Shown: positions 1 through 13,869 of the stretch, in pieces
Layout: each line of letters starts with the position of its first letter
Numbering within the stretch: position 1 is the stretch's first letter
DNA from: Lachnospiraceae bacterium
GTDB taxonomy: Bacteria > Bacillota > Clostridia > Lachnospirales > Lachnospiraceae
Reading direction: 5' to 3'
Length of the DNA stretch: 15,534 bases
NCBI GenBank assembly: GCA_029068555.1
Contig: JAIECJ010000147.1
Span: 9,410 to 24,943 of the forward strand
The notes under the pieces: generated by a model
The model's database searches: none
What the model was told of the DNA's origin: nothing
The model's input: only the letters and a program-made list of their open reading frames with translations
Translations under genes and position numbers: made by a program

Positions 1-437
1 ATACCAGCCTGAAAACGGTCAGGGAAAGAAAACACCTTTGGGTCATCAAAAGAGCCGATAATTTCCTTACTGGTGGCAAGTCCGCAGGTCGGGGTGCCAT
101 GACATGTGGTATAATACCCTACACGGATATCGTCAGTATAGCAGCGTCGTGCTTCCTTGACAGGGGCCAGGTCAATCATTAGTCTGTCATATCGCGGGCG
201 GACAATCTTCATGGTTCCGCGTTTTCCTGAGGTAATCTTGATGCGCACAAGTCCGGCTTCCTCGAGTTTCCCTACGTGCATGGATATTGCACCATTGGTA
301 AGACCAAGCGCTTCAGCAAGGTCATTCATGCTAAGGGAGTCATTTTCATATATCATTTCCATAATTTTCACGCGCATAGGTGTGCTTAATGCTTTAAAGA
401 CATTTTCGGCTTCGCCGACAGAACGAAAGTACAGCAT
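1..437 (-). CDS. ArsR/SmtB-like winged-helix transcriptional regulator with an extra Cys-containing C-terminal region (N-terminus complete; 3' end runs off the window)
   Basis: Not in the supplied ORF track because it is open at the window edge. Minus-strand translation from ATG at 437 gives MLYFRSVGEAENVFKALSTPMRVKIMEMIYENDSLSMNDLAEALGLTNGAISMHVGKLEEAGLVRIKITSGKRGTMKIVRPRYDRLMIDLAPVKEARRCYTDDIRVGYYTTCHGTPTCGLATSKEIIGSFDDPKVFSFPDRFQAG... with no stop. The pattern ALSxPxRxxI...L(S/N)xLAxxLGL(T/S)xxxxSxHxxxLxxAGLV is the ArsR-family HTH signature. A purine-rich RBS (GGAGAAGGGGG, minus strand, 449-459) lies upstream. Confidence 0.8.
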   Translation of the reverse strand, partial: MLYFRSVGEAENVFKALSTPMRVKIMEMIYENDSLSMNDLAEALGLTNGAISMHVGKLEEAGLVRIKITSGKRGTMKIVRPRYDRLMIDLAPVKEARRCYTDDIRVGYYTTCHGTPTCGLATSKEIIGSFDDPKVFSFPDRFQAG

Positions 438-463
438 AAGACAATCTACCCCCTTCTCCGGTC

Positions 464-483
464 ATCAATTTATAATCATTGAT
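464..483. promoter_or_regulatory. Inverted repeat ATCAAT-N8-ATTGAT in the regulator 5' leader (candidate autoregulatory operator)
   Basis: Perfect 6 bp arms at 464-469 and 478-483. It lies between the predicted -10 (506-511) and the regulator start codon (437). Confidence 0.3.
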
Positions 484-505
484 TTATTTTTAATGTATTG
501 TATTT

Positions 506-534
506 ATTATAGTGAATACTAAAACAAAAGTCAA
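506..534 (-). promoter_or_regulatory. Near-consensus sigma-A type promoter for the regulator gene
   Basis: The minus strand reads TTGACT (534-529), a 17 nt spacer, then TATAAT (511-506). This sits ~70 nt upstream of the regulator ATG at 437. Confidence 0.5.
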
Positions 535-643
535 GGATTAAATTGACAGTCCGTTGCTAGAGCGTGTTTGAAAAATCATTCCTGTCATCTATACGCTTTA
601 TTATAATATCATCTGCTCTGTTTCAGGAAACATTAAAAATAAT

Positions 644-660
644 ACGTGATAAGTACACGT
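644..660. promoter_or_regulatory. Palindrome ACGTG-N7-CACGT in the divergent intergenic region (candidate operator)
   Basis: Arms at 644-648 and 656-660 are exact reverse complements. They stand out as a GC-containing island in otherwise AT-rich DNA. Confidence 0.25.
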
Positions 661-796
661 TATAAATGGATTGTATCTCAATATAGTGATTATTATTCAT
701 AAACATAACTAAAAGAGTACACTATTTGATAAAACATTTAATTGTCGCTAAAAATATATAATGTAATACGAATATTTGCGAAAAAGGCACAAATTG

Positions 797-826
797 TTGA
801 TAGTGCACAAAATAAACGGCTAAAAT
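797..826 (+). promoter_or_regulatory. Candidate operon promoter A (TTGATA-18 nt-TAAAAT)
   Basis: -35-like TTGATA at 797-802 and -10-like TAAAAT at 821-826. It is overlapped by a direct repeat GCACAAA (787-793 and 805-811). AT-rich DNA produces many promoter-like hexamers, so this is tentative. Confidence 0.25.
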
Positions 827-911
827 TCGTCAAATAACTCAAAAGTTCTTAAAACCTTATAAAATCAAGGAATTTGTATGTTCATAGTGCCAATGTAAAT
901 GAGAAATGATA

Positions 912-940
912 TTGACTTTTTTTCTAATATAGCGTAAGTT
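912..940 (+). promoter_or_regulatory. Candidate operon promoter B (TTGACT-17 nt-TAAGTT)
   Basis: TTGACT at 912-917, a 17 nt spacer containing a T7 run, then TAAGTT at 935-940. This is ~105 nt upstream of the first operon ATG (1047). Confidence 0.25.
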
Positions 941-1046
941 AATTATATAAAGCAAAACTAAAATAATTAACTCATGAATAAAACAAACAAAGTGAAACGA
1001 AACAAAAAGGTTCAAATTGTTATGTGATCAGAAAGGTCGGGTCGTC

Positions 1047-4046
1047 ATGAAAAGAGGAAATGCAAAGAGAGTCATGGCGCTTAGCATGGCAGTATGTATG
1101 GTCGCAGCCACGGCAGTGACATCGCTTCCGACAATGCAGCTAAGGGCACAGGAATCAGAACAGACAACTCAGGGGACGGAGACAGAAAATTATTCAAATG
1201 AGAGACTGGATAACGGTTACACAAAAATCAGTGCGGGGTACACGCTTTCCGCATACACTGGGGAGCCGGTTCGCTACAAAATGAGCAATGTGTACAAATC
1301 AGGGGATGCCAGTCTGACAAGAGAGTATGGGTATGTGGGAAACGGAGAGGATGATGGCGCACTTTCCATTCCGGAGAAAGGAAAGGTGGAGCTTGAAATC
1401 GACGTGCCGCAGTCAGCAGTTTACTATATGAACTTTGACTATCTGGCAAATAGTGAGTCCATTCTTCCGGTTGAGGCAGGTATCATGGTTAATGGTGCCT
1501 ATCCGTTTTATGAGATGCGTCAGCAGAAGCTTGAGAGTCAGTGGACGGCGAAAGACAAAAAAGTGTATGACAGCTACGGCAATGAAGTTGTCAGCATGCC
1601 GGATAAGGTGTACGACTGGCAGAATAAGTATGTGCAGGATTCCACATACCGATATACACAGCCGCTTGGCATTGAGCTTCAGCAGGGGAAAAATTCCATT
1701 TCTATTGAATTAAATGAAGGTACCCTTTTGCTGGGGGACATTTGCCTGACGGCAAAGCCGCAGATACCAGAATACACAGGAAGCGAGACGGCGCCGGGCG
1801 ATGGATTTATCGAGATACAGGCGGAGGACTTTTTGTATAGAAACGATTCGGCAATCCATGCGACTTGTGAGTATGATCCGGATTTGTATCCCTATCAGGC
1901 GGGAAACAGGGTTATGAATACTGTTGATGCGACGTCTTTCGGAAAAGGTGGTCAGGAAGTGACTTACATCTTTGATGCAGAGCAGACAGGAAATTACTAT
2001 GTCGCATTTCACTACAGTCAGGGCGATAAAGCGGACTTCCCAGTATTTATGAATGTGAAGATAGATGGCAGTATTCCGAATACAGCCTTTGAAAATCATG
2101 CGTTTGCATATGAGAAAAAATATGAAATGTACACAATGGTTGACGGGGACGGAAACAGAATCAGCGTGCCGCTTGAGGCAGGCAGACATACGATTTCCAT
2201 GCAGATTAGCATGGAGCCGGTCCGAGAGTCCCTTGAGACCATTGAGAAAATTATGGGAAAGGTCAATGACCTGTCACTTGAGGTCACAAAGGTTGCTGGC
2301 ACAAACAAAGACAAATTCAGGGACTTCTCCCTGGAGGAATATATTCCGGGAATCGGCGAAACCATGACAGGGTGGGCGGATGAGTTGAATCAGGTCATGG
2401 AAAACGCAAGGGTGTATAATCCAAAGAAAAACAAGATAGCAGCATATGCCTCTATCAAGATTGCGGAGAACCAGCTGCGGAGTCTGGCAAAGAAGCCAGA
2501 TGAACTGATTTACAGAATCGACGAGCTTGCAACAAGCACCTCCTCTGTAAACCAGCATCTTGCCAACCTTATAGACAGTCTTAACGGCAATGATTTCGCG
2601 CTTGACAGTATTTATCTGTATCAGGAAAATGCTGCAAAGCAGCTTCCGAAGAACAAGAATATATTTGTGAAGGTATGGCTTGGCATTGTGCGGTTTTTTA
2701 CTTCCTTTGGCGAGCAGGCATACTCCTCGACAAATACCAATCCGGAGCATTTGCAGGTTTCGGTAAACCGTTCCAGACAGCACCTTGAGATTATGCAGCT
2801 TCTGATTAATGAGCAGTTTACACCGCAGACGGGAATAGAGGTAGACCTTTCTCTGATGCCGGATCAGACAAAGCTGGTGCTTGCCAATGCGTCAGGGGAT
2901 TCGCCGGACGTGGCAACAGGGGTCAATTACTCCATTCCGTTTGAGCTTGGTATCAGGGGGGCGTTGAAAGATCTGACGGAATTTGATGATTTTGCAGAGA
3001 TTGCGGAGCGTTACAATGCAGGACTTATTATGCCATATGTTATTGGTGACCGAATCTATGCGCTTCCGGAGACAATGAATTTCCAGGTGATGTTTTACAG
3101 GAAAGATATCCTTGACAAACTAGGACTTGAGGTTCCGGATACACTCGAGGATGTGCAGGCAATGCTCCCTGACTTGCAGATGAGAGGACTGAATTTTTAC
3201 TACCCGACGGCAAGGACGGTGGGTATGAAGACGTTTCTCGACACGACGCCGATTTTGTTCCAGAGCGGAGGAAATCTGTATGATGGTACGGTTGACCAGG
3301 CGGTGTTAACCAGCGAGGAGAATGTGGAAGGCTTTACAACAATGACAAACTTGTTTACCATATACAATCTTCCAAAGGATGTGCCAAACTTCTACCAGCA
3401 TTTTAGAAACGGGGATTATCCGATTGGTATTTCTGACTTTGGAAATTACAACATGATTTCGAATGCGGCTCCTGAGATTGACGGTTCATGGGGGGTGGCG
3501 CTGATTCCGGGTGTAAAGGATGAAAACGGAGAAGTGATGCGTTATTCATCGGCGGGCGCTGAGTCGACATTTCTGTTTGAATCTACACCTGAGCGGGAAC
3601 AGCAGGCATGGGAGTTTGTGAAGTGGTGGTCAAGTGCACAAGTGCAGGCTGAATTCGGACAGCGGCTTCAGATTACATATGGTGATGAATACTATTGGAA
3701 TACTGCAAATGCGGAGGCGTTTGCACAGCTTCCGTGGGACAGCGACGACAAAGAAGTTATTTTGGAGCAGCTTGAGTGGACGCTGGAGGCTCCGAGAGCG
3801 TTGGCAAGCTATATGGTGGAGCGTGAGCTTTCCGACGCATACAATCTTGTGGTGCTTGGAGCAAAGAGCGCTTCTGTGCGTGAGTCGCTTGATGATGCGC
3901 AGAAGAGTGTGAAGCGTGAGACCCAGAGAAAGCTTGAGGAATTTGGCTATATTGAGAATGGTGTGATGGTTGAGGAATATGAAGTGCCGACTGTCGAGAA
4001 AGTGCGTGAGATTATAGCCAATTCAAAATCGAAGGGGGTGAAATAG
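1047..4046 (+). CDS. Giant (~999 aa) secreted solute-binding protein: signal peptide, two tandem CBM6/35-like beta-sandwich modules, a helical linker, and a family-1 ABC sugar SBP domain
   Basis: ORF 1017-4046. I prefer the ATG at 1047 (MKRGNAKRVMALSMAVCMVAATAVTSLPTMQLRAQE is a positive N-region plus hydrophobic core) with AAAGG ~11 nt upstream. Module 2 opens with the CBM6/35-like 'FIEIQAEDF' and contains 'GQEVTYIFDAEQTGNYYVAFHYSQG'. Module 1 has the analogous 'GKVELEIDVPQSAVYYMNFDY'. The C-terminal ~400 aa (PDVATGVNYSIPFELGIRGALKDL...YALPETMNFQVMFYRKDILDKLGLEVPDTLEDV...WEFVKWW) reads as an extracellular solute-binding protein. Its stop codon directly abuts the ATG of a permease gene. Confidence 0.8.
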   Translation: MKRGNAKRVMALSMAVCMVAATAVTSLPTMQLRAQESEQTTQGTETENYSNERLDNGYTKISAGYTLSAYTGEPVRYKMSNVYKSGDASLTREYGYVGNGEDDGALSIPEKGKVELEIDVPQSAVYYMNFDYLANSESILPVEAGIMVNGAYPFYEMRQQKLESQWTAKDKKVYDSYGNEVVSMPDKVYDWQNKYVQDSTYRYTQPLGIELQQGKNSISIELNEGTLLLGDICLTAKPQIPEYTGSETAPGDGFIEIQAEDFLYRNDSAIHATCEYDPDLYPYQAGNRVMNTVDATSFGKGGQEVTYIFDAEQTGNYYVAFHYSQGDKADFPVFMNVKIDGSIPNTAFENHAFAYEKKYEMYTMVDGDGNRISVPLEAGRHTISMQISMEPVRESLETIEKIMGKVNDLSLEVTKVAGTNKDKFRDFSLEEYIPGIGETMTGWADELNQVMENARVYNPKKNKIAAYASIKIAENQLRSLAKKPDELIYRIDELATSTSSVNQHLANLIDSLNGNDFALDSIYLYQENAAKQLPKNKNIFVKVWLGIVRFFTSFGEQAYSSTNTNPEHLQVSVNRSRQHLEIMQLLINEQFTPQTGIEVDLSLMPDQTKLVLANASGDSPDVATGVNYSIPFELGIRGALKDLTEFDDFAEIAERYNAGLIMPYVIGDRIYALPETMNFQVMFYRKDILDKLGLEVPDTLEDVQAMLPDLQMRGLNFYYPTARTVGMKTFLDTTPILFQSGGNLYDGTVDQAVLTSEENVEGFTTMTNLFTIYNLPKDVPNFYQHFRNGDYPIGISDFGNYNMISNAAPEIDGSWGVALIPGVKDENGEVMRYSSAGAESTFLFESTPEREQQAWEFVKWWSSAQVQAEFGQRLQITYGDEYYWNTANAEAFAQLPWDSDDKEVILEQLEWTLEAPRALASYMVERELSDAYNLVVLGAKSASVRESLDDAQKSVKRETQRKLEEFGYIENGVMVEEYEVPTVEKVREIIANSKSKGVK

Positions 4047-4958
4047 ATGGCAGTCAAAAAAACCAAGGCTGCTCAGCGCGAGCATGCCAACAAGGCGGCG
4101 TATGCGTTTCTGGCTCCGTATGTAATCCTGTTTACCATCTTTATCATTATTCCAATGATGGTGGCAATAGCGCTTTCCTTTACAAGCTATGACACGATAC
4201 AGGCGCCTACTTTCAAAGGGTTTCTGAACTACATAAACCTGCTGACGGCGGATGATATTTTCATGCAGAAGGTATTGCCGAACACAATTATCTATGCGGT
4301 GATTGTAGGGCCTGGCGGATATGTCTTGTCGTTTCTGGTTGCATGGCTTCTGGCGCAGCTAAGCTCGGTTCCGAGAACAATACTGACAGTCATCTTTTAT
4401 TCACCGAGTATGACTGGAGCGGTGTCTATGACGGTGCTCTGGAAGATTATTTTCTCCGGTGACCAGATGGGGTACCTGAACAGTTTTCTGATGCGCCTGG
4501 GCGTTATCGACGCGCCGATTATCTGGCTGGTGGACGCCAGATACCTGCTTCCGATTATTATTATCGTAGCGCTGTGGTCGAGCATGGGCGTTGGATTCCT
4601 TGCGATGCTTGCCGGCATTCTGAATGCGGACGAGGAAATCTATGAGGCGGCAGCGATTGACGGTGTGAAGAACCGTTTTCAGGAGATGATTTATATCACG
4701 ATACCAACCATGAAACCGCAGATGCTTTTCGGTGCAGTTATGGCTATCGTGGGCGCTTTCCAGAACGGTGCAATCGGTGTCCAGCTTGCAGGAACAAACC
4801 CGACGCCAAATTATGCGGGGCAGCTGATTGTCAACCATATTGAAGATTATGGTTTCCTGAGATACGAGATGGGTTATGCCGCTGCAGTTTCTGTTGTGCT
4901 GCTTCTGATGGTGTTTGCATTCTCGAAGTTCTTCGGGCGGCTGTTTCGAGAAGATTAA
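4047..4958 (+). CDS. Carbohydrate ABC transporter permease (MalF/CUT1-type), importer 1
   Basis: 303 aa with multiple hydrophobic spans. The N-terminal '[21 protein letters not shown]' is typical of sugar permeases. EAA loop: '[29 protein letters not shown]'. GGGGGTG RBS upstream, and the ATG immediately follows the upstream TAG. Confidence 0.9.
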
Positions 4959-4970
4959 GGGAGGTGCGAT

Positions 4971-5843
4971 ATGGCTGGATATAAAGGAAGTAATATCAAT
5001 CCCAAGAAGTTTGAGATTGGTCAGTTAAAAATAGTACTGGTACTTTTGCCGCTTGCGGTTTTTATGGGGATTCCCATTGTGTTCATTGTCTGCCATGCGT
5101 TTAAACCGATGGATGAGTTGTTTGCGTTCCCACCGCAGATTATCGTACACAGGCCGACACTCGACAATTTTGTTAAATTGTTTAAGGCTTCGGCAAACAG
5201 CAATATTCCCATGAGCCGTTATGTGTTTAATAGTCTGATTGTGACAGGCTGCGTTGTTCTGTTGTCAATCCTGTTTTCCACGATGGCGGGATTTGCGCTG
5301 TCAAAGCTCCGTTTCAAGGGAAAGTATGCATTGCTTGAGGTGAACAATACTGCGTTGATGTTTGTGTCGGTGGCGGTTATGATTCCGAGATATCTTGTAA
5401 TTGATGCGCTTGGTATGAAGGATACATATTTTGCACATATTCTGCCGCTTCTCGCCATGCCTGTAGGACTGTTTCTGGTAAAACAGTTCATCGACCAGAT
5501 ACCAGATGCGCTGCTTGATGCGGCGTACATGGATGGAGCGTCGGATTTCAAGATTTATCGTTCGATTATTCTGCCGCTTGTGAAGCCGGCAATAGCGACG
5601 ACGGCGATTCTTGCTTTCCAGCAGGTCTGGGTAAATGTTGAGAGCTCAAATTTTTATATTAATGACGAGAGTATGAAGACGCTGGCATTTTATCTGAATA
5701 CACTGGCGAACCAGAATAGCAATGTGGCAGGGCAGGGAATTCAGGCTGCCGGTATTCTGATACAGTTTATACCGAATCTTGCAATTTTCTTAATCCTCCG
5801 GAAGAGCTTTATGAACACAATGGCTCATTCAGGCATCAAATAG
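4971..5843 (+). CDS. Carbohydrate ABC transporter permease (MalG/CUT1-type), importer 1
   Basis: 290 aa with multiple TM spans. EAA loop: 'LLDAAYMDGASDFKIYRSIILPLVKPAI'. GGGAGGTG RBS lies 6 nt upstream of the ATG. Confidence 0.9.
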   Translation: MAGYKGSNINPKKFEIGQLKIVLVLLPLAVFMGIPIVFIVCHAFKPMDELFAFPPQIIVHRPTLDNFVKLFKASANSNIPMSRYVFNSLIVTGCVVLLSILFSTMAGFALSKLRFKGKYALLEVNNTALMFVSVAVMIPRYLVIDALGMKDTYFAHILPLLAMPVGLFLVKQFIDQIPDALLDAAYMDGASDFKIYRSIILPLVKPAIATTAILAFQQVWVNVESSNFYINDESMKTLAFYLNTLANQNSNVAGQGIQAAGILIQFIPNLAIFLILRKSFMNTMAHSGIK

Positions 5844-5860: not shown

Positions 5861-7894
5861 ATGAGACAAAAAGTAAAAATGGTGATTTTGATGGTGTTGT
5901 GTCTAAGCATGATTGCCGGCTCCACAGCTATTGCTGAAACGCCTTATAGGACATATACGGTAGATGGTTACGGATACGTGCTGGAAACGCAGTCCGCATA
6001 CAATCCGGCGTCTGCCATCACAAAAGTCGGGGAGACCTCTTTTGTGACGCCGATGGATATGGCAATCGGAAATGATGGAAACCTGTATATTGCGGATGCG
6101 GGTGCTCATGTGGTTATGGTCAGCACAGTCGGAGGTGACGAAGTGCGCATGATTGGGGAGGGTACACTACAGTCGCCGACAGGTGTGTTTGTGTCGGATG
6201 ATGACAAGGTGTATGTCGCTGACAAGGATGCGAAAAAGGTATTTGTATATGACTTGGAAGGCACTCTTCTAAACGAGTATGGGAAGCCGGATTCACCGAT
6301 TTATGGGAACAGTATGGACTTCAAGCCAATCAAGGTTGTGGCAAACAACACAGGCACAATGTATGTGATTTGTGAGGGAAATATGAATGGTATTGTCCAG
6401 ATTAGCCCTGTGGACGGCGGTTCATTCCTTGGCTATTTTGGAACAAATTACACGTCGCTAAGCCCGTTTCAGATCCTGCAGCGGCTGATTCTGACGGACG
6501 CGCAGAGGGCGCAGATGCTGAGTAATATACCTTCGACACCGACCAATCTTCACATTGATGAGGACGGACTGATTTACACTGTGACACAGGGCGACAAGGA
6601 TATGGCACTGAAGAAGCTGAATATTGCGGGTAAAAACTTGCTGGATTCAGATCCATACTGGGCAGACCTGCCGGCGGCAGTGACGACAGGGCAGTATCAT
6701 AATATGCTGGTGGCAGACTCGGATGGATATATTTACGAGTACAATGAGGAGGGTGAGCTTCTGTTTATGTTTGGCGGACGGGATGACGGACGCCAGCGAA
6801 TCGGCCTGTGCAACAAGGTAGAGGCAGTGGCAGTAGATGCTTCTGACAGGATTTACCTGCTGGATTCGGACAAGAGGCAGGTACATATTTTTGAGCCGAC
6901 AGAGTTTACAAACCTTCTTCACGAAGCGCTGTATCTGTTTTCAAAAGGAAGGTATACAGAGAGCAAGGAGCCGCTTGAAAAAGTTTTGCAGATGAACAGT
7001 ATGTTTGACTATGCCAACCAGGCGATGGGGCATGCATATCTGCAGGAGGAGAATTATACAGAAGCGCTGCGGTATTTTAAGTTAGCCAAGTCAGCAGACG
7101 GTTATTCGGATGCGTTCTGGGAGGTCAGAAATATTTGGATTCGGAATTATCTGGTGGCGGCGGTTGCAGCGATTGTGGCAGCATCAGTGGCGCTCAGCCT
7201 TTATAAAAAGAGGCAGCGAATCAAGTACGGGGAGAATGGTGCACCTGCATATTTTTCACAGAGAGTACCGCTTCTGGGAACACTCAGGTACAGTCTGCAT
7301 TTTATGCGGCATCCGTTTGACGGCTGCTATGGCGTGAAACGTGAAGGCCGGGCGAGCATTGCCTGCGCGAATATTCTGCTTGCGGCATACATCCTTGTCT
7401 CGATTATTGAGAAGTACTTCAGCGGTTTTCTTGTAAAGACAGTCAGGGAAGGTCGGTATGACATTATTTCGGATATTGGCACAGTTCTTGTTATTTTTTT
7501 CGGATTGACGCTCTGCAATTATCTGGTTGTTACAATCAATGAGGGCGAGGCTTTTTTGAAAGAGCTGTACTGTGCTTATGCATACTGTCTGACTCCATTT
7601 ATCGTTATTAAACCATTTGTAGTGATTCTGTCAAATGTGCTGACGTACAATGAAGTTTTCCTGATTTCGTTTGCAAACATTATTGTATTGGTATGGATGC
7701 TGGTACTGTTATTGATATCTGTTAAGGAGATGAATAATTTTTCGGTAAAGGAGACGGCAAAAGCGCTGGCGCTGACTGCATTTACCGTTTTGATACTCTC
7801 CCTGCTGATTTGTATTATATATGTATTGTTCTCACAGGTTATCGACTTCATAAGTTCTGTATTGCGAGAGGTGGTGTATAGAATTGGAAGCTAA
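5861..7894 (+). CDS. Membrane fusion protein: signal peptide, six-bladed NHL-like beta-propeller, TPR-like helices, a TM helix, and a C-terminal 5-TM Yip1-like domain
   Basis: 677 aa with an AAGGAGGTG RBS. Signal peptide: MVILMVLCLSMIAGSTAIA/ET. There are six repeats of the NHL-type blade motif (GNLYIADAGAHVVMV; DKVYVADKDAKKVFVYD; GTMYVICEGNMNGIVQI; GLIYTVTQGDKDMALKKL; MLVADSDGYIYEYN; DRIYLLDSDKRQVHIFE). TPR-like segment: ALYLFSKGRYTESKEPLEKVLQMNSMFDYANQAMGHAYLQEENYTEALRYFKLAK. A TM helix (LVAAVAAIVAASVALSLY) is followed by KKRQRIK. About 5 further TM helices follow, in a region that reads like a Yip1-family domain. Confidence 0.75.
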   Translation: MRQKVKMVILMVLCLSMIAGSTAIAETPYRTYTVDGYGYVLETQSAYNPASAITKVGETSFVTPMDMAIGNDGNLYIADAGAHVVMVSTVGGDEVRMIGEGTLQSPTGVFVSDDDKVYVADKDAKKVFVYDLEGTLLNEYGKPDSPIYGNSMDFKPIKVVANNTGTMYVICEGNMNGIVQISPVDGGSFLGYFGTNYTSLSPFQILQRLILTDAQRAQMLSNIPSTPTNLHIDEDGLIYTVTQGDKDMALKKLNIAGKNLLDSDPYWADLPAAVTTGQYHNMLVADSDGYIYEYNEEGELLFMFGGRDDGRQRIGLCNKVEAVAVDASDRIYLLDSDKRQVHIFEPTEFTNLLHEALYLFSKGRYTESKEPLEKVLQMNSMFDYANQAMGHAYLQEENYTEALRYFKLAKSADGYSDAFWEVRNIWIRNYLVAAVAAIVAASVALSLYKKRQRIKYGENGAPAYFSQRVPLLGTLRYSLHFMRHPFDGCYGVKREGRASIACANILLAAYILVSIIEKYFSGFLVKTVREGRYDIISDIGTVLVIFFGLTLCNYLVVTINEGEAFLKELYCAYAYCLTPFIVIKPFVVILSNVLTYNEVFLISFANIIVLVWMLVLLLISVKEMNNFSVKETAKALALTAFTVLILSLLICIIYVLFSQVIDFISSVLREVVYRIGS

Positions 7895-7901
7895 AGTTGA
7901 T

Positions 7902-10217
7902 ATGAAGAAAACAGGCAAGGGCCTTATAAAATTTGGCATAGCTGTGCTGGCCATTATCGTTATTGTGGCAGTTGCAGTGGCGGCTTCCAAGTCCGGTGGG
8001 AAGGACAGCCTGAATGTCAGTGAGCTTCAAACGGCAGTGAATGCACCTGAGGCTGCACTGAGCGATGGCGCTGTGGATACGTCCAGACAGCTTGACGGAC
8101 ATCATCTGGTGGCGGCAAATGATACCTACGAGCTTTATCTGTATGAACCTGCACTTTCCATTATTGTTAAAAATATAAAGACAGGTGCGGTGATGGAGTC
8201 CACTGTCCGTGACGAGGAGCGTCTTGGAAATGTCAATGAGACATGGAAAGGATTTTTACAGTCGGGAATTGTTGTGGAGCTTCAGGAGGAGACCAACACT
8301 ATGCAGAAGAAGCTGGGACTAGAGGGAAGCGGTGCACAAGTCAATGTTGAACTGATTCCTGGCGGATTCCGTGCAAAGGTAGATTATCCGACGCAGGAGC
8401 TTGGGTTTGAAACCGAGGTGAAGCTCTATGACGACGGAAGTATCACAGCATGTATTCCTGAGCGTTCTATCTATGAGCACGCAGATAACAAAAAGATTGG
8501 TAACATTTATGTGTTTCCGCTTCTTGGAAACTCAAGGCTTGGTGAGAAAGACGGGTACATGTTTGTGCCGGATGGAAACGGCGCACTGATTTATCTGGAC
8601 GACAAGGAAGGACGGTTTGATTCTGGATATGTTCAGAAGGTGTATGGCTCTGACATTGGCGTCGGAGAGTCCTATGTGCTTTCTCTTTTGTGGGGGCGCT
8701 ACGAGACACACAATGATGCGGAGATGATTCTGGCGCCGGTTTACGGCATGGTTCACACAGGAGATGAGATGGGATATCTTGCCGTTATCGAGAGCGGTGA
8801 TGAGGAGGCTTCCATCTATGCGACACCCAACGGTGCATATTCCGATTACAACTGGATTACGGCAGCATTCCGGAAGTGCACGACCTATATCCAGCCGACA
8901 TCTAATTCAGGCGGTTCTGTTACAAAAGTAACTGACAGGATAAAATACGACATTAATGTCAGGTATATGTTTGTCGACGGTGAGGATGCAGACTACACAG
9001 GACTGGCAAAACGCTACAGGGAGTATCTCCTGGAAAAGGATGAGCTGGTCAGGGTGGAGGACAGTTTTAAGGTGCGGCTTGACTTCCTTGGGCTGGATGT
9101 CGAAAACTGGATGCTGTGGAAAAAGGATGTGCCGGTGACGACTGTAGACAATATCAGGGAAATGTATGCAGACTTGGAAAAAGAGGGTGTCACAGATATT
9201 CTTTCTTTGTACAAAGGATGGCAGGATGGCGGCATTTATGACTTGCCTGTGACCACATATGATGTGGCGGGCGGCATAGGCGGCGCAGGTGACTTGTCGA
9301 AGCTCATGGACGAATGTGAGCAGAAAAATATTGATTTTTACCTATTTACAGACGGTGTGCGTGCAAACACCGAGACTGGAAACACAACATTTGACACGGT
9401 TAAGAAGATGGATAAACGTCTCTACACACAGAATACATACCAGAATGTGTATCGTGAGTTTGTGTACTGGACACCGCAGAAAACACTTGAAAATTTAAAC
9501 ACACTTCAGAAGAATCTCGCAAAAAAGGGTGTCAATAAGATCGCATTGTCAGTAATTGGGAATACGCTGTTTACCTACACGATGGGTGATACGATGCAGA
9601 CCCGCGGCGTCTCAAAATACCTGTACGAAGAAGCGCTGAGACAGACAAGTGAGAATATGGATCTAATGCTGGAAGCGCCGGTTGAATGCTATTGGCAGTA
9701 TGCAAAAGCGATTGTGGATATGCCGATTGACGACTCCGATTATATTTACACAGACCAAAGCGTACCGTTTTTGTCGATTGTATTAAAGGGAATCCTTCCG
9801 ATGTATGGCGACTATGTGAATTTTGAGGCAAATGAGAGGGAGTATTTCTTAAAACTGGTGGAGACAGGAATCTATCCATCGTTTTATCTGACATATGAGA
9901 ATCCGTCTGAACTGATTTATACCAATTCAAGCCATGTGTATACTTCACAGTACACAGTGTACCGTGAACAGATACTGCGTTATTACAATGAGCTGCGGCA
10001 GATTAGTGAGCTTACGAAAAACAGTATGATTGATGAACATGAAATAACTGACACAGGTGTCATAATTGTAACCTATGATAATGGTGTAAAGCTGTATATC
10101 AATTATTCTGACGCAGAGCTGAAGGCAGATGACGTGACAGTTCCCGCACTTTCATATGTGGCTCGTGTAAATAATGAATTGACAGGCATAGCAGGAATGG
10201 GGGTGGATGAAGGATGA
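7902..10217 (+). CDS. N-terminally membrane-anchored extracytoplasmic protein, DUF5696-like; putative uncharacterised glycoside-hydrolase-like enzyme
   Basis: The ORF track opens at TTG 7884, which has GAGAGGTGG ~10 nt upstream and would overlap the upstream gene by 11 nt. The first ATG is at 7902 (MKKTGKGLIKFGIAVLAIIVIVAVAVAAS, a signal anchor), so the start is ambiguous between these two. The body shows beta-rich N-terminal and C-terminal parts flanking alternating beta/alpha segments (RLDFLGLD, ILSLYKGWQDGG, IDFYLFTDG, KIALSVIGN, LMLEAPVE, VDMPIDDSDY). The family name is from memory of similar ~800 aa proteins next to sugar ABC genes and needs an HMM check. Confidence 0.65.
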   Translation: MKKTGKGLIKFGIAVLAIIVIVAVAVAASKSGGKDSLNVSELQTAVNAPEAALSDGAVDTSRQLDGHHLVAANDTYELYLYEPALSIIVKNIKTGAVMESTVRDEERLGNVNETWKGFLQSGIVVELQEETNTMQKKLGLEGSGAQVNVELIPGGFRAKVDYPTQELGFETEVKLYDDGSITACIPERSIYEHADNKKIGNIYVFPLLGNSRLGEKDGYMFVPDGNGALIYLDDKEGRFDSGYVQKVYGSDIGVGESYVLSLLWGRYETHNDAEMILAPVYGMVHTGDEMGYLAVIESGDEEASIYATPNGAYSDYNWITAAFRKCTTYIQPTSNSGGSVTKVTDRIKYDINVRYMFVDGEDADYTGLAKRYREYLLEKDELVRVEDSFKVRLDFLGLDVENWMLWKKDVPVTTVDNIREMYADLEKEGVTDILSLYKGWQDGGIYDLPVTTYDVAGGIGGAGDLSKLMDECEQKNIDFYLFTDGVRANTETGNTTFDTVKKMDKRLYTQNTYQNVYREFVYWTPQKTLENLNTLQKNLAKKGVNKIALSVIGNTLFTYTMGDTMQTRGVSKYLYEEALRQTSENMDLMLEAPVECYWQYAKAIVDMPIDDSDYIYTDQSVPFLSIVLKGILPMYGDYVNFEANEREYFLKLVETGIYPSFYLTYENPSELIYTNSSHVYTSQYTVYREQILRYYNELRQISELTKNSMIDEHEITDTGVIIVTYDNGVKLYINYSDAELKADDVTVPALSYVARVNNELTGIAGMGVDEG

Positions 10218-11236
10218 AGGGCAGCAGAAAAATAAAACCCGGACAGCTTGAGCGCCGGGAGAATGCGATTGGTTATCTTTTCATATTGCCATGGCTTATC
10301 GGAATCCTGGTGCTGGTGCTGTGGCCGATGGTGCAGTCCTTTGGGTATTCGCTCAATAAGATAAGGCTCTTGCCGCAGGGTATGGCAAAGCTCTATGTCG
10401 GATTTGAGAATTATAGTCAGATATTCCTAAAGGATCCGGATTTCATTATGGGACTGGAATCGTATCTGCTGGAGACATTGATTGCCGTTCCGGTTATTGT
10501 GGCATTTTCACTGATTATAGCGATGCTGTTGAATCAGAAAATTTCCTGCAGAGGAATTTTTCGAATGGTATTCTTCCTTCCGATTATCATCGCCAGCGGA
10601 CCAGTCATGCAGCAGCTGGCCGACCAGGAGGCGGCGAGCATTCCAATGATGAATGTGACGATGATAGAGCAGCTTTTGGATGAGTATCTTCCGCATGTGC
10701 TGGCAGTGAGTCTCACAAGCGTATTTAGTAATATGATTACGCTGCTATGGTACTCCGGCGTACAGATTTTGATTTTCCTTGCGGCGTTGCAGAAGATTGA
10801 TACTTCGCTTTATGAGGCGGCAAAGATGGATGGCGGTTCCAAGTGGGAATGCTTCTGGAAGATTACACTGCCGACCGTCAAGCCGATGATTCTGCTGAAT
10901 GTTGTCTACACAGTAATCTTTATGTCAAATAATGAGCAGAATGCGTTGATTGTACTGATTTATGACACGATGCTTTCCGCCACGGGCGGTTACGGATATG
11001 CTTCCGCGATGGCATGGCTGTATTCTGTCATCGAGTCGGCAATTGTTATTTTCTTTGCGGTCCTGATTATGGGACGCAAGGACGTGTACGAGAGACGTGC
11101 AAAGAAGTACCAGCGTGAGCTGAGGAAACAAAAACGCCTTGAGAAGAAGATTAGAAAGAGGGGTGAGCGAAATGAGCGAAACTACGCAAAGCAAAAAGAG
11201 AAGCGGCAGCGAAAGCATTCTAAAAAGAGTGCTTAG
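10214..11236 (+). CDS. Carbohydrate ABC transporter permease (MalF-type), importer 2, with an unusual ~48 aa Lys/Arg-rich C-terminal tail
   Basis: 340 aa. The ATG overlaps the upstream TGA (ATGA at 10214-10217), with a GGGGGTGGATGAAGG RBS. N-terminus: 'IGYLFILPWLIGILVLVLWPM'. EAA loop: 'SLYEAAKMDGGSKWECFWKITLPTVKPMI'. Tail: YERRAKKYQRELRKQKRLEKKIRKRGERNERNYAKQKEKRQRKHSKKSA. Confidence 0.9.
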   Translation: MKGSRKIKPGQLERRENAIGYLFILPWLIGILVLVLWPMVQSFGYSLNKIRLLPQGMAKLYVGFENYSQIFLKDPDFIMGLESYLLETLIAVPVIVAFSLIIAMLLNQKISCRGIFRMVFFLPIIIASGPVMQQLADQEAASIPMMNVTMIEQLLDEYLPHVLAVSLTSVFSNMITLLWYSGVQILIFLAALQKIDTSLYEAAKMDGGSKWECFWKITLPTVKPMILLNVVYTVIFMSNNEQNALIVLIYDTMLSATGGYGYASAMAWLYSVIESAIVIFFAVLIMGRKDVYERRAKKYQRELRKQKRLEKKIRKRGERNERNYAKQKEKRQRKHSKKSA

Positions 11237-12197
11237 TTCCGAGGGCAGGGAACAGATAAAGTACAAGGTCAGAAAATTTATATTTGGTTCCAAGGATACA
11301 GAGGGTGCAGGTAAGCTTGCCGTAATCTATCTGCTGCTAATCAGCATTGGGTTTGTCTATCTCTATCCGGTTCTGTATATGATCAGCAAGAGCTTTATGA
11401 ACCTCAATGATTTGCTCGACACCTCGATTAACTGGATTCCAAGCCAGCTGTATCTTGAAAATTACAAACAGGCATTTCAGTCCATGGACTACTGGAAGAC
11501 GTTTCGCGATTCTGTCGTGATTGCGGGATTTCCGACATTGATAAACGTTGTTATTTGCGCCATTGTCGGATATGGATTTGCGCGCTATGAGTTCAAGGGG
11601 AAGAAGCTATGTATCGGACTGCTTCTGTTTTCTTTCATCCTGCCGCCGCAGGCAACAATGATGCCTACCTATGTGTTTTATACAGATATCGGATTAATCA
11701 ATTCGATTATGGCGTTTATCATCCCGGCGCTGCTTGGACAGGGACTGAAATCGCAGATATTTATCCTGATTTTCTTTAACTTTTTCCGTCAGATACCGAA
11801 GGTACTGATAGAGGCGGCAAAGATAGACGGGGCAGGACATTTTAAGATTTTCCGCAAAATTGCGCTGCCCTCCGCGGCTCCCGCGATTCTGGTTGTGTTC
11901 CTGTTCTCAATTGTATGGTACTGGAATGAGTCATATCTGACGCAGCTCTATGTCGTTGGCGCGTTTACAAGCAATGCGGACGCGTATCACTGGAGTTCGC
12001 TGATTGTATCGCTCAAGAATTTTGAAAATAGTTACAATACTGCAAGAAGTGTCGCCGGAAGCGGAATGGTTGACATTAACGAGTCGATTAAGATGGCTGG
12101 GACGATGCTCAGTATATTACCACTGCTGATTATGTATCTGGTACTTCAGAAGCAGTTTGTTGAGAGCGTGGACAGAACCGGAATCACCGGGGAATAA
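11172..12197 (+). CDS. Carbohydrate ABC transporter permease (MalG-type), importer 2
   Basis: The ORF is open from 11139. I prefer ATG 11172 (MSETTQSKKRSGS...), which has a GAGGGGTG RBS ~6 nt upstream. This gives a 65 nt overlap with the upstream gene. An alternative GTG at 11229 has no RBS. EAA loop: 'LIEAAKIDGAGHFKIFRKIALPSAAPAI'; multiple TM spans. Confidence 0.85.
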   Translation: MSETTQSKKRSGSESILKRVLSSEGREQIKYKVRKFIFGSKDTEGAGKLAVIYLLLISIGFVYLYPVLYMISKSFMNLNDLLDTSINWIPSQLYLENYKQAFQSMDYWKTFRDSVVIAGFPTLINVVICAIVGYGFARYEFKGKKLCIGLLLFSFILPPQATMMPTYVFYTDIGLINSIMAFIIPALLGQGLKSQIFILIFFNFFRQIPKVLIEAAKIDGAGHFKIFRKIALPSAAPAILVVFLFSIVWYWNESYLTQLYVVGAFTSNADAYHWSSLIVSLKNFENSYNTARSVAGSGMVDINESIKMAGTMLSILPLLIMYLVLQKQFVESVDRTGITGE

Positions 12198-12258: not shown

Positions 12259-13869
12259 ATGAAAAAGAAAATGGTAAGCTTTATGATGACTGCGGCTTTG
12301 GCGGCTGGTCTGCTTAGTGGGTGCGGTGGAGGTTCCGGCTCGGCTCCGGCGACTGACAGCGCCAGCACTGGAACAAATGCAGGTGCGAATACGGATGCAA
12401 ATGCAAGTTCAGGGGATACGGCAGGTGACACGGCTGCGGCTGGGGAGCTTCCGGCGATGACTACGGATGAGATTACACTGACTTATATGCATTTTGACAA
12501 TGAGCAGCTTGTAAACAGGGTGGCGGAAGCATTTATGGATAAGTACCCGAATATCAAAGTGGAAGCACAGGCGTTTTCCACGGACGGATATAATGACACT
12601 CTTCTGAATCTTGTTCAGTCCGGTCAGACGCCTGACTGCTTTATGATTCTGGGTAACTGTGATTTCGCGCTCTCCAATGCGCTGCTTGGCGATATGACAC
12701 CGTACTGGGAGGCTGACCCTGAGAATCAGAATATCCTTCCTTCCATCAACAGTGCGAGGCTTGGTTATTATGGAACAGACAAGAAGCTTGCGACACCGAT
12801 TAAGTTTTTTCCGGATGCAATTTACTGTGATTTGAATGTGTTTGAGACCTTGAATATTGAAGCGCCATCTACAAACTGGACATGGGACGAGATGATCAAT
12901 ACGTTTAAGGCTGCGACCAATACGGACGCAGGAACCTATGGGTTTAACCAGTTCCACTCCGTTGTCACATATTATCCGATTTCCAACGGCAACAATCTGA
13001 TAGGAGAGTTTGGATGGGATGGCAAGGCATATCATATGGATCAGTGGGCAGCAGGTGTAAACCAGTGGGCGGAGCTTGTAAATGGAAAGTATCATGCACC
13101 GTATGGCGATACAGACGAGATGGAGGCATGGACAGGTGACAGAACGATGTGGGCGGCATACACAGGAAAACTTGGTTTCCAGATTGACGCGTGGTGGACT
13201 TATCTGAACCTGTTTGATACGCCGGACTATAGAAACCGCGGTATGGAATGGGTTCCTTACACAACACCGGCAAGCCAGAGCGGATATGTATTTGGCGTGC
13301 TTGACTTCGGCGGTATTTCTTCTTCTACAAAACATCCAAGAGAGGCGTATGAGCTTTTAAAGTGGATGGGCTGGGGCGCTGAAGGCTGGCAGACAAAGCT
13401 TGATGCTTATCAGGATGTCGAGACTTATGCGGATCTTCCGCTCTACAGACAGTCAATGCCTTGTCCGATTACGACAGATGCGGATATCTGGAAAGAGTTC
13501 CAGGAGTCCTTCTATCCGACAGCAGCCACAAGAACATTCCAGGCAGTAAATGACCCGGTAAACGGTGAAGCGCTTGTTACGGCAGACGAGGACACGAAGT
13601 ACGGCAAGTATTTTGATGATTTCTTCGCAAACTGCAAGAATCCGATACCATTTGGCGACTGTCAGATTCCGGGATTTGCTGACTTCCTTGATACATCTTA
13701 TCGTGCAGTGGGCGATACGCTGGGCGTGGAAGATCAGGTTCGCTTAGAGGGCAAAAATGCAAGTGACTTTGCGGCAGAGCTTGAACAGAAAGCTTACGAT
13801 GCAAATCAGGCAGCTTTGGCAGCAGCCAAGGAAGCATATCAGATGATTGGTATTGAACTGAATTATTAA
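12259..13869 (+). CDS. Lipoprotein extracellular solute-binding protein (family 1, large LplA-like sugar SBP), importer 2
   Basis: 536 aa with an AAGGAGG RBS at 12244-12250. Signal peptide with a canonical lipobox: MKKKMVSFMMTAALAAGLLSG/C. This is followed by a ~45 aa Gly/Ser/Thr/Ala/Asp low-complexity tether, then an SBP-like body (ITLTYMHFDNEQ...YPNIKVE...EAYELLKWMGWG). Confidence 0.85.
   Translation: MKKKMVSFMMTAALAAGLLSGCGGGSGSAPATDSASTGTNAGANTDANASSGDTAGDTAAAGELPAMTTDEITLTYMHFDNEQLVNRVAEAFMDKYPNIKVEAQAFSTDGYNDTLLNLVQSGQTPDCFMILGNCDFALSNALLGDMTPYWEADPENQNILPSINSARLGYYGTDKKLATPIKFFPDAIYCDLNVFETLNIEAPSTNWTWDEMINTFKAATNTDAGTYGFNQFHSVVTYYPISNGNNLIGEFGWDGKAYHMDQWAAGVNQWAELVNGKYHAPYGDTDEMEAWTGDRTMWAAYTGKLGFQIDAWWTYLNLFDTPDYRNRGMEWVPYTTPASQSGYVFGVLDFGGISSSTKHPREAYELLKWMGWGAEGWQTKLDAYQDVETYADLPLYRQSMPCPITTDADIWKEFQESFYPTAATRTFQAVNDPVNGEALVTADEDTKYGKYFDDFFANCKNPIPFGDCQIPGFADFLDTSYRAVGDTLGVEDQVRLEGKNASDFAAELEQKAYDANQAALAAAKEAYQMIGIELNY

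Follow-up and report, generated by a model that had tools for sequence, protein, structure and literature searches.

The analyzed window is a stretch of 15,534 nucleotides from a Lachnospiraceae bacterium (contig JAIECJ010000147.1). It contains an intact ORF of 677 aa, preceded by a strong RBS (GGAGGTG) 6 nt upstream of ATG 5861 and closed by a stop codon at 7892-7894. The ORF, here named NHL-TPR-Yip1 after the parts of its product, is surrounded by genes for ABC permeases and solute-binding proteins (SBPs) and is followed by a gene for a DUF5696 protein (Table 1). Since 1,786 homologues were retrieved by a word-index search and 15,850 hits by an exhaustive HMMER search, we regard it from its sequence as a genuine conserved gene and not as a chance ORF.

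Within SBP1 the SBP domain covers residues 592-882 and is preceded by an N-terminal extension of approximately 560 aa. This extension gave only a faint CBM35 signal (CBM_35, E 0.047) and no match by sequence against the PDB. The size of SBP1 ranged from 914 to 1073 aa in all loci. Permease D overlaps permease C with either of its putative starts, and the same overlap was called in locus L001. No MFP or MacB-type gene was found within the window. A scan for promoters and terminators did not define the operon boundaries.

Table 1. Genes of the window and parts of the NHL-TPR-Yip1 protein, in order of position
Feature	Position	Strand	Evidence
Divergent winged-helix (ArsR/MarR-type) regulator, 3' part beyond window start	3..437	-	Pfam HTH_24/HTH_5
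Giant solute-binding protein SBP1, about 1000 aa, likely start ATG 1047	1017..4046	+	Pfam SBP_bac_1/8
ABC permease A (BPD_transp_1)	4047..4958	+	Pfam, synteny
ABC permease B (BPD_transp_1)	4971..5843	+	Pfam, synteny
NHL-TPR-Yip1 membrane protein gene, 677 aa	5861..7894	+	ORF, RBS, Pfam NHL and Yip1 over cut-off, AF2 pLDDT 91
Putative signal peptide, residues 1-25 (MRQKVK, hydrophobic core, AIA/ET)	5861..5935	+	Hydropathy peak 7-25; helix 2-18 in AF2 model
Extracellular six-bladed NHL beta-propeller, residues 26-346, helical insert 202-218	5936..6898	+	Pfam, PDB sequence matches, AF2, Foldseek
Two TPR-like helical hairpins, residues 347-411	6899..7093	+	AF2 helices 348-361, 365-378, 383-395, 399-409; TPR_2 of relatives; PDB
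Juxtamembrane helix, residues 412-429, motif GYSxAFWExRNxW	7094..7147	+	Conservation in 64 relatives
Tether helix TM1, residues 430-448, out to in	7148..7204	+	Hydropathy; continuous AF2 helix 412-456
Cytoplasmic linker, residues 449-497 (49 aa), opens with KKRQRIK	7205..7351	+	Charge, pLDDT, conservation
Yip1 domain, residues 498-677, five TM helices and C-terminal helix reaching outside	7352..7891	+	Pfam PF04893, hydropathy, AF2
DUF5696 protein, N-terminal TM anchor and GH129/GH101/GH31-like three-domain ectoprotein	7902..10217	+	PF18952, E 1e-164
ABC permease C (BPD_transp_1), Lys/Arg-rich C-terminal tail	10214..11236	+	Pfam, translation
ABC permease D (BPD_transp_1), start TTG 11139 or ATG 11172	11139..12197	+	Pfam, translation
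Second solute-binding lipoprotein SBP2, 536 aa, lipobox LSGC	12259..13869	+	Pfam SBP_bac_1
GH43 lipoprotein with GH43_C domain, extends past window end	13979..15534	+	Pfam Glyco_hydro_43, 2.4e-37

Domain layout and family of NHL-TPR-Yip1

The first-pass annotation of this DNA had read a signal peptide, six NHL blades, about two TPR-like hairpins, one TM helix followed by KKRQRIK and five further TM helices in the protein. All of these were recovered by hydropathy, Pfam and an AF2 model (pLDDT 91.0, pTM 0.80). The assignment of the N-terminal region to a propeller and of the C-terminal membrane region to Yip1 was likewise confirmed by Pfam and AF2, and for the propeller also by Foldseek. At the level of profiles, NHL and Yip1 scored over the cut-off, but TPR stayed under it in the protein itself.

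The signal peptide would be cleaved between AIA and ET. For the propeller, the Pfam NHL profile (PF01436) scored 37.3 bits against a cut-off of 20 and was matched in all 64 relatives. The nearest PDB chains by sequence were the NHL propellers of Thin, TRIM2/3/71, Brat and the PknD sensor. In the AF2 model residues 31-346 form six four-stranded blades of a closed propeller, mostly with a pLDDT above 90, and its best Foldseek matches were the six-bladed NHL domains of Thin, TRIM71, TRIM2 and Brat (E 7e-16, target-normalised TM-score 0.75-0.82).

In the following region the TPR_1, TPR_2 and TPR_8 profiles remained below their cut-offs (best TPR_1, 20.4 bits vs 27.8). TPR_2 was matched in 41 of the 64 relatives at E<=0.01 (best 4e-8), consensus-TPR chains of the PDB align to residues 360-420 (E 8.5e-5), and the model shows tandem antiparallel helix pairs with four helices across 348-409.

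No segment of the protein is better conserved than the juxtamembrane helix, in which S416 and R423 are invariant among the 64 relatives. The adjacent TM1 is very poorly conserved (mean identity 16% in a per-domain comparison). The linker contains 11 K/R versus 3 D/E; its pLDDT falls below 50 at 460-463, and a conserved HPxDxxYxxK motif (P485, Y490) follows. After the linker the hydropathy profile has five peaks and the AF2 model five helices, which place the TM helices of the Yip1 domain at approximately 498-520, 535-559, 566-591, 596-625 and 629-653. The Yip1 profile (PF04893) scored 37.7 bits against a cut-off of 28.6, covering residues 507-649 and profile positions 33-171 of 173, and was matched in 59 of 64 relatives. 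The mean identity of this part was 32%, with invariant motifs, and E670 in the C-terminal helix was invariant as well. A PDB sequence search with the Yip1 half gave no match.

Altogether, conservation peaks at the outer membrane interface, namely in the juxtamembrane motif 412-429, an LTxNE loop and E670, and TM1 varies freely. From the alignment this pattern appears interface-like. The ectodomain is predicted to lie outside, with the N-terminus of the Yip1 domain in the cytoplasm and its C-terminus outside, because the ectodomain is secreted and is followed by a single TM1 and a K/R-rich linker. The domain order and topology proposed in the first pass are thus supported by hydropathy, charge and the AF2 prediction.

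The view that the protein is an unusual fusion did not hold. The full-length family comprises 1,143 clusters at 50% identity (HMMER, E<=1e-30). Of the best 150 representatives, about 138 can be aligned over their entire length, with identities down to 28%. Judged by these searches, the architecture is common. It has been assigned no function in the literature that we searched: queries for DUF5696/PF18952 and for Yip1 together with NHL, ABC, SBP, glycoside hydrolase or the host genera returned no paper on the NHL-TPR-Yip1 family. The longer family members (728-853 aa) were searched for an added domain hinting at function, and none was identified.

In one Butyrivibrio strain the protein is divided over two genes, one for the propeller with TM1 and one for Yip1, the split falling exactly within the variable cytoplasmic linker. 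The two parts are modular and can be separately encoded. Three other deviations were rejected. A fusion of NHL-Yip1 with DUF5696 (locus L066) was judged an assembly frameshift, because the DUF5696 ectodomain would end up on the wrong side of the membrane. A split within the propeller (locus L060) was also judged an assembly frameshift, and "Yip1-only" ORFs upstream of DUF5696 on short contigs are contig-edge truncations and no separate architecture.

The double ABC cassette and its DUF5696 protein

In every locus examined, from Lachnospiraceae, Oscillospiraceae, Bacilli and Paenibacillus, the same order was held: giant SBP, two permeases, NHL-TPR-Yip1, DUF5696, two permeases and usually a second SBP. 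NHL-TPR-Yip1 was located between the two permease pairs each time, which bears out the tie to the surrounding ABC system that had been suggested initially. Among the genome loci of sufficient length, 39 of 39 were fully syntenic, and relatives with an identity of only 26-29% retained the cassette core. Paenibacillus copies, both chromosomal and plasmid-borne, encode their own MalK/UgpC-type ATPase.

NHL-TPR-Yip1 is always co-encoded with DUF5696, almost without an intergenic gap. Here, the ATG of DUF5696 is located 7 nt past the NHL-TPR-Yip1 stop and its RBS lies within the NHL-TPR-Yip1 gene. Starting from the DUF5696 side, a full-length NHL-TPR-Yip1 was present directly upstream in 103 of 103 loci with at least 2.2 kb of upstream sequence, some of these loci not being independent of one another. 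In the plasmid database either gene occurred in only two records, and both records contained the two genes together.

The surroundings of the cassette were variable. Flanking CAZymes differed by lineage (GH43/GH51/AbfB; GH35/GH144-like/GH94/GH3; GH13; none in Paenibacillus) and adjoining regulators by locus (ArsR-like, LacI, HK/RR, TetR). The identity of the ectodomain was 26-29%, whereas permeases A and B reached 55-61%. The ectodomain co-diverges with SBP1 and DUF5696, all of them faster than the permeases. The locus is a conserved double sugar-uptake cassette of gut and soil Firmicutes.

The first-pass annotation had missed DUF5696, the obligate downstream partner and the most informative part of the context. 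Its start is fixed at ATG 7902 by a 100%-identical database protein of 771 aa; TTG 7884 is an alternative start. The AF2 model (pLDDT 82.6, pTM 0.85) matched ZgGH129 (E 9e-32) and NagBb (1e-26) in Foldseek at a sequence identity of only 11-13%. By sequence, a profile-to-PDB comparison matched NagBb weakly (E 0.0065), and the single sequence gave no match against the PDB. The alignment was taken from a profile search, the initial homologue search having given only sequences at least 80% identical. According to the model, DUF5696 is a membrane-anchored ectoprotein of GH129/GH101/GH31-like fold. It shares the N-terminal beta domain, the (beta/alpha)8 barrel and the C-terminal beta sandwich with GH129 and GH101. 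It differs from these in its N-terminal membrane anchor, and the catalytic Asp/Glu pair could not be placed. A literature search did not find DUF5696 within any described GH family.

Putative role of NHL-TPR-Yip1

Our preferred, still tentative reading is that NHL-TPR-Yip1 is a dedicated, probably non-catalytic accessory or adaptor subunit of the double ABC sugar-import cassette. In analogy to YknW, which docks on YknXYZ, the Yip1 bundle would attach sideways to the membrane domains of the ABC transporters. Raised some nanometres from the membrane, the propeller-TPR ectodomain would serve as a binding platform, which may retain the DUF5696 ecto-glycosidase-like protein and/or the SBPs or their oligosaccharide at the transporter mouth. 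Capture, trimming and uptake of the glycan could thereby be coupled. This role would be generic and tied to no single substrate, because the same cassette adjoins different glycosidase sets in different lineages.

The YknW precedent had been rightly given in the first pass: this Yip1-family protein is reported to modulate the assembly of YknXYZ (PMC4887032). Compared by description, YknW and NHL-TPR-Yip1 share a five-helix Yip1 membrane domain, and each is encoded in the operon of an ABC transporter. However, YknW is a stand-alone Yip1 protein that lacks an ectodomain, whereas NHL-TPR-Yip1 bears an NHL-TPR ectodomain. The partners differ as well, YknW acting with a MacB-type exporter and a membrane-fusion protein in protection against the SDP toxin, in contrast to the MalF/G-type importer permeases (BPD_transp_1) and SBP_bac_1/8 binding proteins found here. 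That the precedent is an exporter of MacB type and not a binding-protein-dependent importer speaks against the adaptor reading.

It is rather unlikely, in our judgement, that the propeller is instead a lectin-like surface module which binds glycan and hands it to DUF5696 or the SBPs, with Yip1 mainly as a membrane anchor. Surface glycan-binding proteins of the SusE/F type offer an analogy. Such a module would agree with an extracellular, membrane-proximal propeller and with a context that is always carbohydrate. The co-divergence described above also belongs here, since the ectodomain changes at the pace of the parts that touch the substrate, a pattern no less compatible with direct glycan contact than with a purely protein-protein scaffold. 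However, no conserved aromatic platform was apparent among the conserved propeller residues, and no CBM or lectin family exceeded the Pfam threshold in the protein or the 64 relatives. A conserved five-helix bundle together with a separate tether would furthermore far exceed the needs of an anchor, considering its mean identity and invariant motifs.

An enzymatic propeller (a lactonase, lyase or esterase of the SMP-30/SGL, Vgb lyase, PAL or arylesterase type) modifying the substrate prior to uptake appears improbable. Weak matches to SGL, Arylesterase and the strictosidine-synthase N-terminal domain favor it, and those to SGL (lactonase-like), which were found at E<=0.01 in 41 of 64 relatives, also count against the adaptor reading. 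Nevertheless, all enzyme-family scores remained under the curated cut-offs (SGL PF08450, 14.4 bits vs 26.3; Arylesterase PF01731, 15.4 vs 21.3), each spanning approximately 50 residues or one to two blades. The structural comparison recommended in the first pass yielded the propeller fold that had been expected, but the closest matches were non-enzymatic NHL domains and Vgb lyase ranked lower (target-normalised TM-score 0.57). In the alignment of relatives, read along the sequence only, the conserved propeller residues were the Gly, Pro and Asp of the NHL repeat motif; a conserved or invariant His was absent, as was an invariant Glu/Asn cluster outside this motif. The alignment and the enzyme HMMs thus give no sign of a catalytic site in the propeller, although a small active or ligand site could be missed. 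Additionally, the glycan themes that accompany the cassette are chemically unrelated, which argues against one bond-specific activity.

We consider it quite improbable that the protein acts as a sensor or gate, the propeller detecting substrate and the Yip1 bundle switching the transporters allosterically or signaling to a regulator. The model would be PknD of Mycobacterium tuberculosis, whose sensor propeller was matched by sequence and which likewise presents a membrane-tethered extracellular NHL propeller in a bacterium; a homologue from Paenibacillus durus even carries the label "PknD" in UniProt. The conserved cytoplasmic HPxDxxYxxK motif and the two-component or HTH regulators near the cassette in several loci point in the same direction. 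Yet the PknD propeller is tethered to a Ser/Thr kinase, whereas here it is joined to a Yip1 bundle with no signaling domain, and the only cytoplasmic part is the 49-aa linker, which is mostly unconserved and lacks an output domain. The adjoining regulators moreover differ between loci, and tight linkage exists to DUF5696 and the permeases but to no regulator.

Finally, a passenger gene of unrelated function, placed beside the ABC genes by chance or hitch-hiking, is effectively refuted by synteny, its place between the permease pairs being invariant from 94% to about 26% identity, in Clostridia and Bacilli, on chromosomes and plasmids, and with minimal intergenic gaps.

Relation to known systems and significance

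With Brat, Thin and the TRIM-NHL proteins NHL-TPR-Yip1 shares the six-bladed propeller. TRIM-NHL domains are cytoplasmic and bind RNA or protein. The eukaryotic Yip1/YIPF proteins belong to the same Pfam family and agree in the five TM helices, the cytosolic N-terminus and a C-terminus across the membrane, but they have no large ectodomain. They act in ER-Golgi traffic with Rab GTPases, and we know of no bacterial equivalent of these partners.

At the level of the locus the cassette resembles the Gram-positive polysaccharide utilisation loci (gpPULs) and the Sus-like utilisomes of Bacteroidetes, in which SBPs, transporter, surface glycosidase-like proteins and a regulator are co-localised. As expected of a gpPUL, the window contained two SBPs, four permeases, a GH43 protein, a winged-helix regulator and the GH129-like DUF5696 protein. 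The proposed logic of capture, cut and import at one site would be similar, the complex being hypothetical here. To our knowledge, described gpPULs have a single ABC importer and lack membrane subunits of the Yip1 or DUF5696 type. In the present cassette, by contrast, two conserved accessory membrane proteins are enclosed by a permease pair on each side.

A further-reaching proposal, which we regard as doubtful, is that NHL-TPR-Yip1 and DUF5696 may form the organising core of an unrecognised Gram-positive "utilisome". In this membrane supercomplex the Yip1 bundle would physically couple two ABC importers, the giant SBP and a new GH129-like ecto-glycosidase family, so that capture, cleavage and import of glycans take place at a single site. 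More broadly, bacterial Yip1 domains would then act in general as lateral adaptors of ABC importers and exporters.

NHL-TPR-Yip1 proteins are already named "YIP1 family protein" in the databases; new here is the cassette context. The cassette is widespread, with more than 1,000 clusters at 50% identity, including abundant butyrate producers among the gut Lachnospiraceae (Roseburia, Agathobacter, Butyribacter and Butyrivibrio) and soil Paenibacillus. It has seven core genes, and for two of them, namely NHL-TPR-Yip1 and DUF5696, the literature search returned no assigned function. YknW is, as far as we know, the only documented case of a role for a bacterial Yip1 protein so far. Should the Yip1 protein prove to be an assembly adaptor, a general and testable role for the bacterial Yip1 domains would follow. 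The adaptor reading, if true, would also make clear how the processing of glycans outside the cell is linked to their uptake in Gram-positive bacteria, flag DUF5696 as a candidate new glycoside hydrolase family and refine how loci for dietary-fibre utilisation are annotated in gut metagenomes.

Architecture and spread of the NHL-TPR-Yip1 protein

The NHL-TPR-Yip1 gene comprises 677 codons, is preceded by a strong RBS 6 nt before the ATG and belongs to one long array of plus-strand genes. Its product scored 37.3 bits for Pfam NHL and 37.7 bits for Yip1 (residues 507-649), above the respective cut-offs of 20 and 28.6, and matches to TPR_1/2/8 were under the cut-offs. By the criteria applied it is a member of the NHL propeller and Yip1 families and carries TPR-like hairpins without reaching the TPR thresholds. 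A hydropathy scan revealed a signal-peptide-like segment (residues 7-25, predicted cleavage between AIA and ET), a single TM helix (430-448) followed by KKRQRIK and, after a linker of 49 residues with 11 K/R versus 3 D/E, five further TM segments. In a PDB sequence search residues 55-195 matched the NHL propellers of Thin, TRIM2/3/71, Brat and the PknD sensor, and residues 360-420 matched consensus TPR proteins.

The AF2 model, based on an alignment of 64 diverse relatives (pLDDT 91.0, pTM 0.80), contained six four-stranded blades (residues 31-346, helical insert at 202-218), four TPR-like helices (348-409) and a continuous helix from the juxtamembrane region through TM1 (412-456). Beyond the low-confidence cytoplasmic linker five long helices were modelled, the last reaching residue 676. 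Foldseek against the PDB ranked six-bladed NHL domains first (E 7e-16, target-normalised TM-score about 0.8). These results are in agreement with the first-pass annotation, which had read six NHL-type blades, about two TPR-like helical hairpins, one TM helix followed by KKRQRIK and a Yip1-like domain with five more TM helices.

Its description as an unusual fusion did not hold. A word-index search yielded 1,786 homologues, and both PF04893 and PF01436 were present in 120/120 of the matches listed. When 1.84 billion representatives were searched exhaustively with HMMER, there were 15,850 hits at E<=1e-3, 3,812 at E<=1e-10 and 1,143 at E<=1e-30. Of the top 150, about 138 aligned end to end (640-720 aa) down to 28% identity; in a set of 64 of these, Pfam recognised NHL (64/64), Yip1 (59/64) and TPR_2 (41/64). 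The fusion is real and old, yet not unusual. Homologues were labelled "YIP1 family protein", "hypothetical protein" or "TPR repeat protein" at source, and the one of Paenibacillus durus "PknD" in UniProt. The hosts include Lachnospiraceae of the mouse, human and ruminant gut (Roseburia, Agathobacter, Butyribacter, Eubacterium, Falcatimonas and Butyrivibrio) as well as Oscillospiraceae, unclassified Bacilli, a Candidatus Enterococcus and Paenibacillus. A literature search found no paper on the NHL-TPR-Yip1 fusion.

Conservation and modularity

Mean identity across 63 relatives was 54% in the juxtamembrane helix, 37% in the TPR, 35% in the propeller, 32% in Yip1, 21% in the cytoplasmic linker and 16% in TM1. 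Given this low value and the conservation elsewhere, TM1 behaves as a mere tether. The most conserved stretch was GYSxAFWExRNxW (412-429), where S416 and R423 are invariant. Near-invariant were P485 and Y490 (HPxDxxYxxK), G562, P579 as well as T595 and E598 (LTxNE, outer loop), and E670 in the C-terminal helix was invariant. R423 and E670, both predicted just outside the membrane, may be in mutual contact. The conserved propeller positions corresponded to Gly/Pro/Asp of the NHL repeat. In the alignment, constraint falls on the outer membrane interface, on the Yip1 bundle and on the fold of the ectodomain.

On plasmid pNP243 of Butyrivibrio fibrisolvens D1 (locus L125, 8923-11018) the protein was encoded by two genes with a 22-nt overlap, which may have split naturally or reflect a frameshift that is tolerated. 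The first, a 498-aa "NHL repeat-containing protein" (NHL-TPR-TM1), ends just past TM1, the second, a 206-aa "YIP1 family protein", starts just before the HPFDG motif, and both products carry RefSeq protein accessions. Since the split lies within the variable, low-pLDDT linker, the two modules seem separable; the propeller-TM1 and Yip1 modules presumably associate non-covalently.

The conserved transporter cassette

Features of the window in the order of the locus
Feature	Position	Strand	Remarks
Winged-helix regulator, ArsR/MarR-type	3-437	- (divergent)	Cys-rich C-terminal extension runs off the window
Intergenic region	438-1016		AT-rich, roughly 580 nt; between regulator and cassette
SBP1, giant binding protein	1017-4046	+	about 1000 aa; SBP domain only at residues 592-882
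Permeases A and B			between SBP1 and NHL-TPR-Yip1
NHL-TPR-Yip1	5861-7894	+	3' of permeases A/B, 5' of DUF5696
DUF5696 (PF18952)	7902-10217	+	E 1e-164
Permease C	10214-11236	+	long Lys/Arg-rich tail (ERRAKKYQRELRKQKRLEKKIRKRGERNERNYAKQKEKRQRKHSKKSA)
Permease D	11139-12197	+	frame overlaps permease C tail by 64-98 nt
SBP2, lipoprotein			3' of permeases C/D
GH43 lipoprotein			3' of SBP2

Gene order was identical to the window in 39/39 genome loci long enough to judge. The two distant cassettes L044 and L045, with members of only 26-29% identity, retained a core in which a giant SBP, two permeases, NHL-TPR-Yip1, DUF5696 and two more permeases follow one another. From the partner side, a metagenome scan with the DUF5696 profile gave 79 loci, which were pooled with the genome loci; a full-length NHL-TPR-Yip1 gene was located immediately upstream of DUF5696 in 103/103 loci whose sequence reached 2.2 kb or more beyond it on that side (not all independent). 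Within the plasmid collection either gene occurred in only two records, each with both genes. The synteny excludes a chance neighbour of ABC genes and upholds the link of the Yip1 protein with an ABC system that had been proposed.

The DUF5696 ATG, established from a database protein of 771 aa with 100% identity, is 7 nt past the stop of the upstream gene, which contains the DUF5696 RBS. Several deviating arrangements were rejected: "Yip1-only" ORFs upstream of DUF5696 are contig-edge truncations, and a propeller split across frames (metagenome locus L060) was judged an assembly frameshift. The same applied to a single 1462-aa NHL-Yip1 and DUF5696 ORF (metagenome locus L066), since a genuine fusion would invert the DUF5696 topology.

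The overlap of permeases C and D was likewise called in related loci (L001). SBP1-type proteins kept a size of 914-1073 aa in all cassettes; in the N-terminal extension of SBP1 (~560 aa, within residues 1-590) a helical region and a CBM35 signal that was no more than faint were seen, and a PDB search gave no relative. Another side observation is a TIR/SEFIR-domain protein encoded close behind the cassette in a single metagenome locus (L120, 15063-16265), which may be an unrelated defence gene.

No ATPase gene was present within the 15,534-nt window. In Paenibacillus cassettes the giant SBP was directly preceded by one MalK/UgpC-type ATPase (L126, 3131-4240; L128, 2981-4093), which supports the reading of the cassette as a complete ABC importer system; one ATPase would therefore serve two permease pairs. 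We infer that the Lachnospiraceae cassettes borrow a shared ATPase.

The flanking glycosidases differed. GH43, GH51 and AbfB were found in the wider clade of the window, GH13 in L127, a further homologous locus, and none next to the Paenibacillus cassettes. The neighbouring genes in L044 (1463-5045) and L045 (548-3853 and 15945-21495) encoded GH35, a GH144-like glycoamylase (PF10091), a GH94 1,2-beta-oligoglucan phosphorylase (SOGP-type) and GH3, which suggests beta-1,2-glucan use. With such neighbours the cassette may therefore serve substrates unlike the arabinan-type context of the window.

Putative roles of DUF5696 and the NHL-TPR-Yip1 protein

A single-sequence search found no PDB relative of DUF5696, and a profile search gave a marginal match to the GH129 NagBb (E 0.0065). 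The AF2 model (57 relatives; pLDDT 82.6, pTM 0.85) began with an N-terminal TM helix and a beta-rich N-domain, which were followed by a (beta/alpha)8-like barrel and, at the C-terminus, a beta sandwich. Foldseek ranked ZgGH129 (E 9e-32) and NagBb (E 1e-26) first, with a target-normalised TM-score of about 0.71, followed by GH101, GH31 and GH36. Conserved carboxylates of the barrel were D394, D484, E591, D606, D618, E642, E654 and E666; D224 in the N-domain was invariant. Since a catalytic pair could not be assigned, the term glycosidase is fold-based here, and DUF5696 is a candidate new glycoside hydrolase family. A literature search on DUF5696 found no paper.

For the NHL-TPR-Yip1 protein itself we tentatively favour a non-catalytic adaptor, because it has no catalytic signature, the cassette occurs generically with differing glycan themes, the conservation is of the interface type and the extra conserved Yip1 bundle exceeds the needs of a simple anchor. 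In this reading the Yip1 bundle would attach to the membrane domains of the ABC system, like YknW, and the propeller and TPR would form a platform close to the membrane that keeps DUF5696 and/or the binding proteins, or their oligosaccharide, near the transporter. Against this reading counts that the ectodomain has diverged as quickly as the proteins in contact with substrate: permeases A/B shared 55-61% identity with the most distant cassettes, and SBP1, NHL-TPR-Yip1 and DUF5696 dropped together to 23-33%. This also fits direct glycan binding by the ectodomain, which we nevertheless consider rather unlikely. Weak SGL-like matches speak for an enzymatic propeller, which is nevertheless improbable: the propeller has neither a His conserved among the relatives nor any evident catalytic cluster. 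A PknD-like sensor or gate is improbable too, since the protein carries no output domain. Of the original proposal the transporter link stands by synteny, and its three options for the propeller (enzyme, glycan binder or scaffold) are all possible.

YknW is reported to modulate the assembly of YknXYZ (PMC4887032). Like YknW, the protein described here is of the Yip1 type and encoded within an ABC operon. However, the partner of YknW is an exporter of the MacB type that has a membrane-fusion protein. Because the partners here are binding-protein-dependent importers, the protein is not a member of the YknW system, although it may work like YknW.

The whole locus qualifies as a Gram-positive polysaccharide utilisation locus. 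It differs by two accessory membrane proteins, both conserved, and by a permease set in duplicate, neither of which is, to our knowledge, part of those described. New would be that a Yip1-type accessory subunit of ABC transporters belongs to importers, carries a fused ectodomain and has a GH129-like ectoprotein as its partner. The fusion is ordinary in databases; the cassette around it, which is conserved, widespread and wholly uncharacterised, would reward experimental work.
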